This document shows positions 4,371-29,396 of a stretch of DNA of 64,000 bases, in pieces. Source of the stretch: Dehalococcoidia bacterium (GTDB lineage Bacteria > Chloroflexota > Dehalococcoidia > Bin125). Position 1 is the first letter of the stretch, and the number at the start of each line of letters is the position of its first letter. The notes below the pieces were generated by a model that was given only the letters and a program-made list of their open reading frames with translations, searched no databases and had not been told where the DNA came from. The position numbers and the translations under genes are program-made. The DNA lies in the NCBI GenBank assembly GCA_963555985.3, contig OY820591.1, forward strand, positions 704,001 to 768,000. The letters are read 5' to 3'.

Positions 4371-4463
4371 GCGAAAGGTTCATCGTCCCGGGGCGTCCGC
4401 TGGGCGCTCCGGGGCGGGTTCCCCCGCTCGGCTACGAAGTAGTAGCGGAGTAAGGAGAGAGAA

Positions 4464-5168
4464 ATGGCACGCAGCACACTCACTCGCCTGCTCGCCGTCG
4501 CCGCGGCCCTGGTCGCACTCACTGCGCTGACCGCGTCCGCGCTGGCGCAGCCCGGCCCCCAGCACCGCTTCTACGGCAGCGGCGTGATGGTGGACGGCGA
4601 AGCGGCTCCGGCCGGGACGATGATTTCGGCCTGGGTCGACGGCGCGGTCGTTGGTTCGACCACGACCGACGCCGACGGCGTCTGGTACATCGACGTCGAC
4701 GGCGGTCAGAGCGTCGTCTTCTCAGTCGGCGAACTGGTCGCGGAGGGCAGCTACGACAGCATCACGGGCGGCCAGACCAACGTCAGCCTCTCGGTGATGA
4801 CGCCGCCGCCTCCTGAGCCGGAGCCGGACCCCTGTCCTGAGGACGGGATGATGGAAGACGGCATGATGGAGGACGACGACGCCATGATGTCGGAAGATGA
4901 CGACGCCATGATGTCGGAAGACGGCGACTCCATGATGGACGGCGACGCCATGCTCGACTGCCCCGAACCGGGCGACGAGATGGACGGCATGGAAGAGGAC
5001 GACATGGACGAGCAGCCGCTGGAGCCTCAGTATCCAGCCGGCGGCAGCGGCGGACTGGCCACTGAGGGTGGCCTCTCCACCGGCCTGATCGGCCTCCTGG
5101 CCGCTCTGGCTCTGGTCGCAGTGAGCGGAGCCGGCTTCGCCGCGCGCCGCTTGCGCCACCGCGCCTAA
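4464..5168 (+). CDS. Secreted RFYG-domain protein with Met/Asp-rich linker and C-terminal sorting signal (YPAGGSGGL-TM-RRLRHR)
   Basis: Signal peptide ending ASALA, then HRFYG..V.VDG..AP.GT.I.AW domain, acidic Met-rich linker, TM helix and basic tail. Paralogs at 22215 and 31713. Confidence 0.8.
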   Translation: MARSTLTRLLAVAAALVALTALTASALAQPGPQHRFYGSGVMVDGEAAPAGTMISAWVDGAVVGSTTTDADGVWYIDVDGGQSVVFSVGELVAEGSYDSITGGQTNVSLSVMTPPPPEPEPDPCPEDGMMEDGMMEDDDAMMSEDDDAMMSEDGDSMMDGDAMLDCPEPGDEMDGMEEDDMDEQPLEPQYPAGGSGGLATEGGLSTGLIGLLAALALVAVSGAGFAARRLRHRA

Positions 5169-9375: not shown

Positions 9376-9403
9376 CGCACGTTTTTCGTTCAAGACACGG
9401 TTG

Positions 9404-10333
9404 ATGATGTTCACACGAGCCAATCTGGCAGCGTTTGCTGCGCTCGGCGCGGGTTCTGCGCTCTATGCGTGGTGGGAGTCGACTGCGGTCGAGATCACAC
9501 GTCGGCCGCTTTACGTGCCCGACTTGCCGCCCGGCCTGGACGGACTGCGGGTGCTGCACATCAGCGACACGCATTTCCCGGAATCGGCGGACTCCGTGGG
9601 GCGGTTTCTCGAATTGATCTGGCCGCTCGAATACGACCTGATCGTGTGCACCGGCGACTATGTGGAAACGGCGGCCGGCTGGAACGCTGCGGGGGACGCG
9701 CTGACGCAGTTACGCGCGCCGTTCGGCGTCTACGCGAGCTTGGGGGCGCACGACTATTGCGCTCCAGTGCGTACGCTGGGATCGTGGTTGCAGTTCAACT
9801 CCGATCGCTTGCGGCATCGGCGCAGACGCATGGTTAATCCGGCTCCGTTTGTCGAGCGGCTCGAGGCGGCGGGAATCGTCGTGCTGCGCAATGAGTGGAG
9901 ATCAGCCGAGATCGGCGGAGAGCTCGTTCGGATCGCCGGAGCGGGAGACGCATCAGTGGGCATGGCGCACTTGGAGCGGGCGCTGCCTCCTGCGGATTTG
10001 ACCCCGGCGTCTTTCCAGATGTTGCTGACCCATAGCCCGGATGCCGTTTTTCGCCTGAGTCCAAGCAGCCGAGAGCCTCGCTTGGTGTTCTGCGGACACA
10101 CGCACGGGGGCCAGATTCGCGTGCCTGGATGGGGCGCGCCCGTCCGTCACTCCAATCTGGTCACGAGAGAGCGGGCGGCGGGTGTGTTTCACCCGTACGG
10201 GCCTGAAGGGCCGCAAGTGATTGTCAGCCGCGGCTTCGGTACGGCGTTCGTGCCTTTTCGATTTGCTTGCCGGCCGGAACTTGGCCTGTACGAATTGCGC
10301 CGCGCGGAGTCTGCCGGACACGCGGGTTTGTAA
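9404..10333 (+). CDS. Metallophosphoesterase (YkuE/YaeI-like, calcineurin-like)
   Basis: HISDTH, TGDYV, SLGAHD (GNHD variant), LLTHSPD, GHTHGGQIR, VSRGFG motifs. Confidence 0.88.
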   Translation: MMFTRANLAAFAALGAGSALYAWWESTAVEITRRPLYVPDLPPGLDGLRVLHISDTHFPESADSVGRFLELIWPLEYDLIVCTGDYVETAAGWNAAGDALTQLRAPFGVYASLGAHDYCAPVRTLGSWLQFNSDRLRHRRRRMVNPAPFVERLEAAGIVVLRNEWRSAEIGGELVRIAGAGDASVGMAHLERALPPADLTPASFQMLLTHSPDAVFRLSPSSREPRLVFCGHTHGGQIRVPGWGAPVRHSNLVTRERAAGVFHPYGPEGPQVIVSRGFGTAFVPFRFACRPELGLYELRRAESAGHAGL

Positions 10334-10380
10334 CCGATCGGCAACGAAAGTCGGCGATTTTTCCTGCTAGACTCGGGATG

Positions 10381-10546
10381 CACGCAGCCGAACTTAGCGC
10401 TGACTCGAGTGAGAACGACAGTTGGCGCCGAGGCGGGGAACCCACCATACGAGGGGTGAAGCGGGCGGACGAGCGAGCCGTCACGGCTTGATCGCACGCC
10501 GGCCGATGACCTGAACATCGAACCCGACAGCTGACCCCGCAGGCAT
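10381..10546 (+). ncRNA. Cyclic di-AMP (ydaO/yuaA) riboswitch
   Basis: Conserved blocks in the correct order: gccgaac, extended P2 hairpin, gcggggaaccca, ggggtgaa, cgatg/catcg stem, cgaacccgacagctgaccccgcaggc. gcgggg (10433-10438) pairs with ccccgc (10535-10540). Lies in the 5' UTR of the KamA-family gene. Confidence 0.88.
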
Positions 10547-10672
10547 GTTCAGGGCGGACGCAGGACCAACGCGGGCGTGATCGAGCCTGGCTCGCCACGA
10601 TCGCCCTTCCTCCGCCGAGCGGCCGCGGGCTGCGCAGACAGCCGCCAATTCTCGCCTGAGGAGGAGTGATCG

Positions 10673-12097
10673 ATGACCACAGAAACCTATAACCCCGCTG
10701 CACTCGGAGCCGACGACTTCGCCTCGGAGCACTACCAGGCGATCAATCTGCACAATTTCGAGAAGCTCCCGCAGATCCAGGAGCTGCCGGACGAGATCAT
10801 TCACGACATTCATGTCGTGGGCCGGGTGCTCCCGTTCAAGTCAAATCGTTACGTCGTTGACCACCTGATCGACTGGGATGATCCGCTCAACGACGGCATG
10901 TTCAAGCTGACCTTCCCGCAGCGCGACATGCTCTCGCCGACGCACTTCAGCACGATGTCGGCGGCGATTGACAGCGGCAAGAACGCGCGCGAGCTGAAGG
11001 TCGTCGCGGATGAGATGCGGATGACGCTGAACCCGCATCCCGCTGGCCAGATGGAGCACAACATGCCCCAGCTGGACGGGATGCCGCTGGAAGGGATGCA
11101 GCACAAGTACCGCGAGACGGTGCTGTTCTTCCCGTCGCAGGGGCAGACCTGTCACGCCTACTGCACCTTCTGCTTCCGCTGGCCGCAGTTCGTGGGGCTG
11201 GAGGGCAAGAAGTTCGCAATGCGCGAGGGTGAGCGACTGCGCGGCTACCTGGCCCAGCATCACGAGGTTTCCGACGTGCTCTTCACCGGCGGAGACCCGC
11301 TGATCATGAAGACGAAGACGCTCCGCGACTACATCGAGCCTCTGACCAAGCCCGACGCGGGTCACAACCTGCGTACGGTGCGGATCGGCTCGAAGGCGAT
11401 CGCCTACTGGCCGCACCGCTTCGTCTACGACGACGACGCTGAGGACTTGCTCAACCTGTTCCGCGAAGTGACCGGCGCGGGAATGCAGCTCGCGCTGATG
11501 GCGCACTTCAACCATCCCGCAGAGCTGCGGACTTCCGTTGCACTGGAGGCGGTCCGCCGGATTCGTGAGACTGGCGCGCAGATCCGCACGCAGACGCCGC
11601 TGCTGAAGCACATCAATGCCGACTCCCAGCTGTTGGCCGACATGTGGGCCGAGCAGACTCAGGCCGGCTGCGTGCCGTACTACCTGTTCGTCGCGCGCGA
11701 CACCGGCGCGAAGCGCTACTTCGAGCTTCCGCTGGTCGATTGCCAGGAGATCTTCCGCGGCGCCTACCAGCGCGTATCCGGCGTAGCCAGGACAGTGCGT
11801 GGCCCGTCCATGTCTGCCGGTCCCGGCAAAGTCCAGATTCTCGGTGTCTCCGAGCATCGCGGCGAGAAACTCATTATCCTTCGCTTCCTCCAGGGCCGCG
11901 ACCCGGATTGGGTCGGCAAGCCGTTCTTCGCCAAGTACAGCGACACGGCAAGCTGGCTCGACGAGCTTGAGCCGGCCGAGGGCGACGAGTTCTTCTTCGA
12001 GGAACGCCTGCGCGAGCTGCTGGCGGAAGAGGGTTCGCCCTGGGCTCGCCCTGAAATCGCGATCCAGCTCCTCGATACAGCCGCCGCGGGCGGATAG
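10673..12097 (+). CDS. KamA-family radical SAM/PLP 2,3-aminomutase-like protein
   Basis: HKYRETVLFF...CHAYCTFCFRW (CxxxCxxC), TGGDPL, HFNHPAEL, QTPLL, PYYLF, and GPGKV (candidate PLP lysine). RBS gaggag. Confidence 0.88.
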   Translation: MTTETYNPAALGADDFASEHYQAINLHNFEKLPQIQELPDEIIHDIHVVGRVLPFKSNRYVVDHLIDWDDPLNDGMFKLTFPQRDMLSPTHFSTMSAAIDSGKNARELKVVADEMRMTLNPHPAGQMEHNMPQLDGMPLEGMQHKYRETVLFFPSQGQTCHAYCTFCFRWPQFVGLEGKKFAMREGERLRGYLAQHHEVSDVLFTGGDPLIMKTKTLRDYIEPLTKPDAGHNLRTVRIGSKAIAYWPHRFVYDDDAEDLLNLFREVTGAGMQLALMAHFNHPAELRTSVALEAVRRIRETGAQIRTQTPLLKHINADSQLLADMWAEQTQAGCVPYYLFVARDTGAKRYFELPLVDCQEIFRGAYQRVSGVARTVRGPSMSAGPGKVQILGVSEHRGEKLIILRFLQGRDPDWVGKPFFAKYSDTASWLDELEPAEGDEFFFEERLRELLAEEGSPWARPEIAIQLLDTAAAGG

Positions 12098-12107
12098 ACG
12101 GTTCGGC

Positions 12108-12539
12108 GTGACTGGCGCCGCTGCGGAGGTTGTCGATCCGGTCGTGCGACCGGGCACGCCTGCGTTTCGTTGCCTGGCGGACGAGTGCGGCGCGATGTGC
12201 TGTCGCAACCCGTACCGTGTGGACTTGGGAGAGGACGAGGTCGCTCGCCTGGCTCGTGAGGTCGACGTGTCGACCGTGCTAGACGAGCGAGCGTCGATGG
12301 TTCTGATGCGCCAGGTCGGCGACGCGTGCGTGCTGCTGACTGAGGATCGGCGCTGCGCGGGCTACGCTGTGCGGCCGAACGGCTGCCGTGATTACCCATT
12401 CCGCGTCGTCAGCGAACCGGGCGGAGATCCGACGCTCGTGCGCGATCTCGCCTGTCCCGGATTCGTTGGGCCGCCTCTGAGCGAGTCTGAGTACGAAGAA
12501 CTGCTCCGGCTGCTGCTGCCGATGTCAAAGCAGCCCTGA
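12108..12539 (+). CDS. YkgJ-family cysteine-cluster (Fe-S/Zn) protein
   Basis: FRC...CGAMCC, CVLL....C..Y..RP..CRDYPF and CPG. Start is an assumed GTG inside ORF 11799..12539. Confidence 0.75.
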   Translation: MTGAAAEVVDPVVRPGTPAFRCLADECGAMCCRNPYRVDLGEDEVARLAREVDVSTVLDERASMVLMRQVGDACVLLTEDRRCAGYAVRPNGCRDYPFRVVSEPGGDPTLVRDLACPGFVGPPLSESEYEELLRLLLPMSKQP

Positions 12540-12875
12540 GACCTTCTCGACGAATCGACTGACGGCAACGAGAGCCCGCCTGACATTCTCAGGGCTATCC
12601 CAATTCTCGTAGAAATTGACATGAAGCTGGTTCGCCACCTGGAACAACAGATAGATATCGTCGTCGTCCGCCTCAGTCGATAGCCGGTCAACGGCTCGGT
12701 AGAGCGCTGCATGGTCACGGTGAGGCAAACCCCGCTGTTCCGCAGCGGCTTTGACGATCTGCGCGGCGGCGCTCCAACCCTTCTCCGAAGCCTGGCGCAC
12801 GTCGTCAGCGGCGAGTTCCGCCTCGGCTTGCGCCAACAGCGTCATGCTGGCTTCGTGATATGCCCGTGTCGTCAT
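12525..12875 (-). CDS. PaREP1-family (HEPN-like) protein
   Basis: QASEKGW.AAAQ.VKA and LHVNFYE motifs. Paralog at 19839..20189. Confidence 0.8.
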
Positions 12876-12970
12876 GCGGCCTCGCCTTCCGTCGGTACAG
12901 CCTAGCCGCCTGTCGGCGTTCGTCGATGTCTCCGTATACTCGACCTGCACAGGAAGAGTGGAGGCGTCTG

Positions 12971-27739: not shown

Positions 27740-27817
27740 TGGGGTGGACGGTGGGATTCGAACCCACGAATACCAGGGCCACAACCTGGCGCCTTAGGCC
27801 TCTAGGCGACGCCCACC
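27740..27817 (-). tRNA. tRNA-His (GUG) with encoded G-1 and CCA
   Basis: Reverse complement G-GTGGGCG...ccagg-ttGTGgc-cctgg...GGTTCGAATCCC...CGTCCAC-C-CCA. Confidence 0.95.
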
Positions 27818-29319: not shown

Positions 29320-29396
29320 GCGCCCGTAGCTCAGTGGAGTAGAGCACCAGGCTTCGGACCTGGGGGTCGGGGGTTCGAGTCCCTCCGGGCGTGCCA
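29320..29396 (+). tRNA. tRNA-Arg (UCG)
   Basis: GCGCCCG-TAGCTCAGTGG..AGAGC-ccagg-ctTCGga-cctgg...GGTTCGAGTCCC..CGGGCGT-G-CCA. Confidence 0.95.

Follow-up and report, generated by a model that had tools for sequence, protein, structure and literature searches.

The question raised by this locus is whether an RNA leader that resembles a sensor of cyclic di-AMP (c-di-AMP) controls the enzyme gene behind it, and what this enzyme makes. The leader lies in a contig of a Dehalococcoidia bacterium (OY820591.1, positions 704,001 to 768,000; this whole stretch of 64,000 nucleotides [nt] is hereafter the window, and its numbering is used throughout), in front of a gene for a KamA-like aminomutase of the radical S-adenosylmethionine (SAM) and pyridoxal phosphate (PLP) type. 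In our reading, to which we assign a probability of roughly 0.55, positions 10416-10672 are a working c-di-AMP riboswitch controlling a two-gene operon, which encodes a beta-glutamate-type osmolyte synthase (10673-12097) and a CxxCxxCC protein (12108-12539); the ligand response, the OFF polarity, the substrate and the osmolyte role are what we infer. Control of an aminomutase by c-di-AMP is already published for canonical ablA. The novelty is the target, i.e., a widespread KamA-like subfamily which fails the lysine, glutamate, arginine and EpmB tests. The core idea of the original prediction, a divergent aminomutase that makes a beta-amino-acid solute under c-di-AMP, is supported, whereas the switch mechanism proposed with it was wrong.

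The sensor part of the leader consists of the following elements:

10416..10561, forward strand: c-di-AMP riboswitch aptamer, P2-less variant (RF00379 score, core-helix covariation)
10461..10503, forward strand: extended P6 hairpin with a 31-nt insertion (RF00379 alignment, folds)
10510..10517, forward strand: 5′ strand of the pseudoknot, in the P7 loop (pairing test, by-eye match to the crystallised RNA)
10546..10553, forward strand: 3′ strand of the pseudoknot, in the 3′ tail of the aptamer (pairing test)

The Rfam covariance model of the c-di-AMP (ydaO/yuaA) class, RF00379, matches the forward strand at 10416-10561 with 41.0 bits (E-value 4.1e-6 in the window and 5e-8 in the genome), and its alignment spans all 134 model positions. 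The gathering score is 38, and the class assignment of the original prediction thus passes the Rfam threshold. Two matches exist in the 3.33-Mb assembly, the window copy and another one of 88.9 bits. The consensus P2 hairpin is absent from the window aptamer (12 model positions skipped, 0 residues), and the variable P6 hairpin carries a 31-nt insertion relative to the Rfam consensus at about 10461-10503. A complete aptamer with unusually long P2 and internal stems had been expected; the aptamer and a long internal stem are present, the latter being P6, but the long P2 and the completeness are not. P6 is also long in the aptamers of L037 and L040, and in the unconstrained fold the P6 insertion of the window pairs with the expression platform (10573-10597). 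The P2-less form is shared by part of genus g8, and the 3′ half of the window aptamer is near-identical to g8 aptamers. By eye, in the crystallised 108-nt two-c-di-AMP RNA (PMC5393176) the P3 strand comes immediately after the P1 strand and GAA, with no P2 hairpin. Since this RNA is P2-less too, the missing P2 may be non-essential and does not disqualify the window RNA.

Across 21 aptamers, 96.8% of the 346 cells that belong to the core helices P3, P5, P6 and P7 are paired, compared with 32-49% in slid controls. Their covariation score was reached by none of 500 shuffles, and eight pairs show double-sided changes. These pair counts come from the trimmed alignment A4; the MAFFT alignment A1 misplaced the P1/P2 region of P2-less aptamers. 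The window aptamer has one G-G mismatch in P6 and retains 46 columns that are invariant across 13 aptamers. Its sole unusual core position is found in a junction, which reads GCGGGGAACCC in the window and GCGGGGGA[C/A]CC in relatives; the consensus GAAC junction is intact if P3 is taken one pair shorter.

In the case of the pseudoknot, CCTGAACA (10510-10517) pairs with TGTTCAGG (10546-10553) through eight uninterrupted Watson-Crick pairs, a result reached by none of 500 shuffled tails. The complementarity quoted in the original prediction is thereby real, at eight Watson-Crick pairs, but its interpretation as a switch helix does not hold, as the two 9-mers are the pseudoknot of the ydaO class. 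At least five uninterrupted pairs recur in 14 of the 24 related aptamers, in seven sequence versions (CCTGAA/TTCAGG, TCTCCT/AGGAGA, CCCTGT/ACAGGG, CTCCGA/TCGGAG, CCGAC/GTCGG, GCCTTC/GAAGGC and the window's own). The remaining ten, including the g9 type, L037 and L031, show mostly interrupted pairing, and L002 has a version containing G-U; the count credits neither. By eye, the RNA of PMC5393176 has an equivalent pseudoknot, with CUCCUUC in the loop and GAAGGAG in the tail. Because the position of the helix, P7 loop and 3′ tail, is the pseudoknot site of the class, the helix belongs to the sensor and not to the switch. Judged from its sequence, the RNA at 10416-10561 is a real member of the ydaO riboswitch class and a structural variant of it, which presumably responds to the ligand.

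A diadenylate cyclase (DAC) domain, the occurrence of which the original prediction left to be confirmed, is present in the genome as one PF02457 gene over cut-off, the open reading frame (ORF) of which is CdaA-like with 171.7 bits against 188.8. By gene content, the host is a producer of c-di-AMP. Behind this cdaA-like cyclase gene comes a YbbR-domain gene, the start of which overlaps the cyclase stop (L001:1126-3269, i.e., G000:C1:1244899-1247042), an arrangement which resembles the cdaA-cdaR pair of Firmicutes. The other aptamer of the genome (88.9 bits; G000:C1:2213426-2213583, reverse strand, equal to L002:1501-1658) has no convincing same-strand ORF downstream; apart from a 40-residue ORF, nothing separates it from an enoyl-CoA hydratase-like gene in convergent orientation.

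The genomes of 60 relatives were searched with the window protein, and an orthologue was found in 34 of the 36 same-family genomes. In addition, 80 public contigs were gathered with a profile of the subfamily, 16 of which are Chloroflexota loci. Of 29 same-family loci, 11 have RF00379 just upstream of the gene and on its strand (49-81 bits), as do 10 of the 16 Chloroflexota loci (49-97 bits), with none in the other six. Two of these ten are not independent, since L035 and L038 encode proteins identical to those of L022 and L026. The association of this leader with homologs of the gene is thus conserved across Chloroflexota. Outside Chloroflexota, a core-motif regular expression and our own model R1 (E ≤ 1) gave a riboswitch in 0 of 64 loci, a count which distant variants could escape because R1 was built from Chloroflexota aptamers alone. 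RF00379 was likewise found before the canonical AblA of Chloroflexota in none of eight loci.

In the tree of 58 proteins, the riboswitch is scattered over two deep Chloroflexota clades and at least seven state changes are needed. With a support of 93, the window protein is placed as the sister of a clade of ten rows without the aptamer, composed of genus g7 (9 loci) and L034, the leaders of which are about 170 nt long and alignable to the window only outside the aptamer. In genus g5, eroded aptamer relics precede the orthologue (L032:1298-1397, 28.1 bits, and L033:1301-1400, 25.6 bits, both on the forward strand and detected with R1); GGGGUGAA and CAGCUAACCCCG are mutated there, with many core substitutions and broken pairs. 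The simplest reading is that the link of riboswitch and gene is an old association which was lost several times, and the window aptamer looks maintained rather than eroded. The family shows the riboswitch full, P2-less, eroded and deleted side by side, and is useful for the study of riboswitch loss.

Two arrangements around riboswitch-bearing loci are recorded here. Locus L074 contains back-to-back divergent c-di-AMP riboswitches (4389-4523, reverse, and 4643-4783, forward; 60.9 and 90.0 bits), one before the KamA-like gene and the other before a class-III aminotransferase gene (PF00202, L074:3053-4327, reverse); the PF00202 family includes omega- and beta-amino-acid transaminases. In one Dehalococcoidia clade, a LysM-M23 peptidase gene comes after the riboswitch-controlled aminomutase (L045:6616-7758, L049:6599-7768 and L074:6661-7803, all forward). 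Peptidases of this kind are a cell-wall enzyme class often under ydaO control.

Downstream of the sensor, 111 nt separate the aptamer end from the ATG at 10673, fewer than the approximately 130 nt first given, and the Shine-Dalgarno sequence GGAGGAG occupies 10660-10666. The expression platform is predicted to contain two arms:

10596..10612, forward strand: predicted 5′ arm of an anti-Shine-Dalgarno sequestor (constrained ViennaRNA fold)
10658..10675, forward strand: predicted 3′ arm of the sequestor, with the Shine-Dalgarno sequence and the start codon (10673-10675) (constrained fold)

When the aptamer interior was barred from pairing in a constrained ViennaRNA fold, 10596-10612 (CACGAUCGC-C-CUUCCUC) paired with 10658-10675 (GAGGAGG-A-GUGAUCG-A-UG), in a helix which covers both the Shine-Dalgarno sequence and the AUG. 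With the aptamer locked, the ribosome-binding region has a mean unpaired probability of 0.19 versus 0.55 in the unconstrained ensemble; in the unconstrained fold, the anti-Shine-Dalgarno segment is taken up by the P3 strand region. No intrinsic terminator with a T-run was found between 10416 and 10672, and the scan of the leader gave no sigma-70-like promoter. The folds predict that the leader is an OFF switch acting on translation. The predicted polarity is in accord with the ablA case of Dehalobacter: according to White et al. 2022 (PMC9337991), the ablA leader of Dehalobacter sp. CF is a tandem Na+ / c-di-AMP riboswitch and an OFF switch, with <5% read-through in the presence of ligand.

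The proposed mechanism would work as follows. At high c-di-AMP the aptamer would fold, including the pseudoknot 10510-10517 / 10546-10553, and would leave 10596-10612 free to pair with 10658-10675, so that the Shine-Dalgarno sequence and the AUG are buried and translation is off. When c-di-AMP drops, as on osmotic upshift, the aptamer strands would pair with the platform, the ribosome-binding site would open and the enzyme would be made. The enzyme would then act on an amino acid whose side chain is acidic, shifting its alpha-amino group to C3, and supply a compatible solute; the most likely reaction is that from L-glutamate to beta-glutamate.

The gene under this predicted control is the following:

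10673..12097, forward strand: KamA-like radical SAM/PLP aminomutase of 474 amino acids (motifs C160/C164/C167, K386, R342 and S379; hidden Markov models, fold)

The protein matches the KamA-family model TIGR00238 with an E-value of 3e-33 and 115.1 bits, short of the cut-off of 199.2. It also stays under the equivalogs of lysine aminomutase (TIGR03820, 85.8 bits vs. 525.4), glutamate 2,3-aminomutase (TIGR04368, 78.3 vs. 650), arginine aminomutase (91 vs. 600) and EpmB (TIGR03821, 94.7 vs. 369.3). TIGR04368 is over its cut-off in none of 251 sampled Chloroflexota genomes, a tally which includes one genome marked unpublished (G286). The motif FFPSQGQTCHAYCTFCFRW, by which the original prediction had recognised a divergent subfamily, is present and near-invariant across its members. 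The CxxxCxxC motif (C160, C164, C167), G206-G207-D208 and K386 are the same in all 13 subfamily members that were aligned. The AlphaFold2 model has a mean pLDDT (per-residue confidence) of 76.8, and its best match among Protein Data Bank (PDB) structures in Foldseek is 2A5H (E-value 2e-13, TM [template modelling] score 0.59-0.69), the next one being at 5e-5.

Residues were mapped onto 2A5H by three alignments that agreed, i.e., a single-sequence one and a profile one against 2A5H, and a MAFFT alignment with eight canonical Chloroflexota AblA (L118 reaches 612 bits with the AblA model). K386 aligns with the PLP lysine K337, and R169, the Arg after the third cysteine, with R134. The differences fall on D293 and D330 of lysine aminomutase (2A5H), which we take to bind the lysine epsilon-ammonium. 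These are replaced by R342 and S379, both invariant in 13 of 13 members from four phyla, while the eight canonical Chloroflexota AblA retain both aspartates. In the clostridial glutamate 2,3-aminomutase Eam, Lys and Asn reportedly occupy the two positions. Arg342 is basic and invariant, and by the mapping onto lysine aminomutase Ser379 would stand in the place of the Eam Asn.

No AblB was found at E ≤ 0.001 in the 96.4%-complete genome, and no EpmA over cut-off (the best match of the genX model is a 520-residue frame with 243 bits vs. 286.9); the window gene is the genome's only KamA-family gene. The remark that no ablB lies adjacent is correct, none having been found in the genome either, and the suspicion that the substrate may not be lysine is strengthened by the replaced aspartates and by AblB and EpmA not being found. 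The ESM Atlas gives only the generic cluster names 'KamA family / lysine 2,3-aminomutase', and the public name 'lysine 2,3-aminomutase' is probably wrong for the subfamily. In some Chloroflexota, a canonical lysine 2,3-aminomutase is fused to a beta-lysine acetyltransferase (730-residue frame at L120:1411-3600, forward, and also L121 and L122; AblA 754 and AblB 346 bits). Most of the window is contained in four sequencing runs of a single study, while runs labelled as sponge or coral-reef metagenome share small parts and give no evidence on habitat. Metatranscriptome contigs from two libraries of another study are 85-95% alike to parts of 10709-12091 only, and none extends over the leader; since assembled contigs cannot show transcription, ends or levels, these matches carry no conclusion.

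Members of the subfamily occur in Dehalococcoidia, Bacteroidota, Ignavibacteriota, Balneolales, Pseudomonadota, Acidobacteriota and Nitrosopumilales, and share 55-65% identity across these lineages. At E ≤ 1e-30 there are 295 cluster representatives, in which full-length identity falls to about 30%, where the Arg-Asp and Ser positions vary. Neighbours were counted in the 77 loci in which ORF calling recovered the aminomutase gene. An MscS-type mechanosensitive channel is near the gene in 17 loci, 13 of them immediately divergent and mostly in Nitrosopumilales. A class I/II aminotransferase (aspartate-aminotransferase-like) is also found in 17 loci, with 15 adjacent, and a type I glutamine synthetase in nine, all of Nitrosopumilales, with eight immediately downstream. 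Na+/H+ exchangers occur in seven loci and CBS-CLC channels in two.

In three of three Nitrosopumilaceae genomes, the sole match of the KamA-family model is the subfamily gene. In N. maritimus SCM1, beta-glutamic acid reaches 730 mM and exceeds every other identified metabolite in abundance (PMC8269262). Among the literature matches listed, none ties an aminomutase or any other gene to the beta-glutamate pool of ammonia-oxidising archaea. Because an Arg is invariant at the side-chain site, and in view of the neighbours and the metabolite, the best guess is that the substrate is L-glutamate and the product beta-glutamate. Osmolyte synthesis is where two lines of evidence meet, the riboswitch link in Chloroflexota and the gene neighbourhoods of other lineages.

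A broader proposal, which we put forward tentatively and at somewhat less than even odds, is that the subfamily represents a third type of glutamate 2,3-aminomutase which evolved independently, with Arg/Ser for Lys/Asn. It would be the beta-glutamate synthase that is still missing for ammonia-oxidising archaea, as well as for many marine Bacteroidota, Ignavibacteriota and Dehalococcoidia; in the last of these it would be gated directly by c-di-AMP through a P2-less riboswitch whose enlarged P6 doubles as part of the platform. If true, marine ammonia-oxidising archaea would have a named gene for their dominant organic solute. The riboswitch and the MscS, glutamine synthetase and antiporter neighbours point to a specific function that is cheaply testable, i.e., beta-glutamate synthesis.

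Several observations weigh against a c-di-AMP-controlled beta-glutamate synthase. The RF00379 score exceeds the threshold by 3 bits only, and the window has a junction A (GGGGGA to GGGGAA) where 20 of 20 relatives have G. The aptamer is absent from the closest genus, g7, and from L034, at a protein identity of 86-88%; as it is missing in g7, the control is dispensable and could be decaying in the window too. The polarity model is a thermodynamic prediction alone, and the g9-type leaders gave no difference between the two states in the same fold calculation, which leaves the polarity evidence weak. The protein is under every curated cut-off, including that of glutamate 2,3-aminomutase, and its Arg/Ser differ from the Lys/Asn that Eam reportedly has. 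The neighbours differ between lineages and the glutamine synthetase is the housekeeping-type GlnA. To our knowledge, beta-glutamate has not been measured in any Dehalococcoidia. In the archaea, the gene is named in Ca. N. koreensis AR1 and several Nitrosopumilus sp., and the 730 mM pool is that of SCM1.

Three other explanations have to be considered. The riboswitch may be as described and the enzyme may act on a substrate other than glutamate, or make a beta-amino acid for a non-osmoprotective use. The protein is under the cut-off of every equivalog, its Arg342/Ser379 are unlike both the Asp/Asp of lysine aminomutase and the Lys/Asn reportedly present in the clostridial enzyme, and distant full-length relatives vary at these positions (ESS, DSD, DAN); an invariant Arg at the side-chain position nevertheless points to an acidic side chain, and of the acidic candidates aspartate yields no new product after a 2,3 shift. 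The aminotransferase (17 loci), which no other neighbour matches in frequency in Bacteroidota and Ignavibacteriota, fits many amino acids, but the MscS, Na+/H+ exchanger and glutamine synthetase neighbours, together with c-di-AMP control, fit an osmolyte, and the gene is the sole KamA-family member in a genus known for 730 mM beta-glutamate. We consider this explanation rather unlikely. A lysine 2,3-aminomutase, feeding N-epsilon-acetyl-beta-lysine synthesis or the beta-lysylation of elongation factor P (EF-P), would be in line with the source names 'lysine 2,3-aminomutase' or 'KamA family' and with there being a c-di-AMP riboswitch before canonical ablA in Dehalobacter (PMC9337991). It is very improbable given the scores against TIGR03820 (85.8 vs. 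525.4) and EpmB (94.7 vs. 369.3), the replacement of both lysine-binding aspartates, and the lack of any AblB hit in the approximately 96%-complete genome and of EpmA over cut-off; the true AblA of other Chloroflexota, some of them fused to AblB, look quite different.

The last explanation concerns the RNA, i.e., that the window aptamer is a decaying relic unresponsive to c-di-AMP and the operon is constitutive as in the sister genus. True relics, L032 and L033, show many core substitutions and broken pairs, unlike the window, in which the four core helices and the 8-bp pseudoknot are intact and the 46 columns invariant in 13 aptamers are retained. The loss of the element in the sister clade g7, the eroded relics of g5 and the seven or more state changes on the gene tree are what decay would leave, and so are the 41 bits of the window aptamer, the lowest among 22 gene-linked aptamers, its missing P2 and its unique G-to-A change; the P2-less form, however, is also found in genus g8 and, by eye, in the crystallised ligand-bound RNA (PMC5393176). 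A relic is quite unlikely on this evidence. A working c-di-AMP riboswitch before a beta-glutamate-type osmolyte synthase remains the preferred reading, and it extends the c-di-AMP riboswitch regulon for osmolyte synthesis from canonical ablA to a widespread uncharacterised aminomutase subfamily.

Around the leader and the aminomutase gene, the following features are found:

12108..12539, forward strand: CxxCxxCC (PF03692, YkgJ-type) putative Zn/Fe-binding protein of 143 amino acids (34.4 bits, cut-off 23)
9401..10333, forward strand: YaeI/LpxG-like calcineurin-type metallophosphoesterase, the next gene upstream of the riboswitch, with synteny kept in most of the family
10338..10364, forward strand: terminator-like hairpin with a T-run, after the metallophosphoesterase stop (10333); one site vs. 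1.6 expected from shuffles, weak alone

The Cys-cluster gene of the original prediction was recovered as the PF03692 member. Since its ORF begins 11 nt past the aminomutase stop, it is probably part of the same operon. The CxxCxxCC gene is directly downstream in 20 of 29 same-family loci, with or without the riboswitch, and beside the aminomutase it is absent outside the same-family clade save L034 and L035. It may have an accessory role in metal or redox chemistry. The terminator-like site at 10338, located after the upstream gene, suggests that the riboswitch leader begins its own transcription unit. A protein of the PaREP1 family, which takes its name from archaea, is encoded at 12525-12950 on the reverse strand (PF05942, 70.5 bits), convergent to the operon, and relatives have two to three tandem copies (L005, L013). 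Two tRNA genes are located at 27743-27816 (reverse) and 29320-29393 (forward), with 57.3 and 66.5 bits.

Compared with known systems, the window RNA has the core helices, the junction sequences and the pseudoknot in common with ydaO/kimA-type c-di-AMP riboswitches (RF00379; crystal RNAs 4QLM/4QLN), and its placement is likewise that before osmotic or cell-wall genes. It departs from their consensus in the lack of P2, a P6 longer by 31 nt, one junction G changed to A and a score 3 bits over the threshold.

The window enzyme shares the fold, CxxxCxxC, GGD, the PLP lysine and the Arg that binds the alpha-carboxylate with C. subterminale lysine 2,3-aminomutase (PDB 2A5H). On the contrary, it is about 20% identical to it, has Arg/Ser for D293/D330, lacks the C-terminal CxCxxC zinc motif, carries an insertion of about 20 residues (LNPHPAGQ...) before the core and has different N- and C-terminal regions. 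With clostridial Eam and the methanogen glutamate 2,3-aminomutase MmarC7_1783, the proposed reaction and the osmolyte role are alike, and probably also a basic residue at the D293 position. MmarC7_1783 is said to have an N-terminal extension of about 160 residues, which the window enzyme lacks.

The closest parallel in regulation is the Dehalobacter ablA leader (White et al. 2022), in which a ydaO-class aptamer likewise precedes a gene for a radical SAM 2,3-aminomutase tied to osmolyte synthesis. The Dehalobacter gene encodes a canonical AblA, whereas the window enzyme reaches none of the curated cut-offs and has Arg/Ser in place of the lysine-binding residues. The Dehalobacter switch, as described there, uses an intrinsic terminator and a paired Na+ riboswitch; in the window no U-tract terminator is seen, and a helix sequestering the Shine-Dalgarno sequence is predicted.

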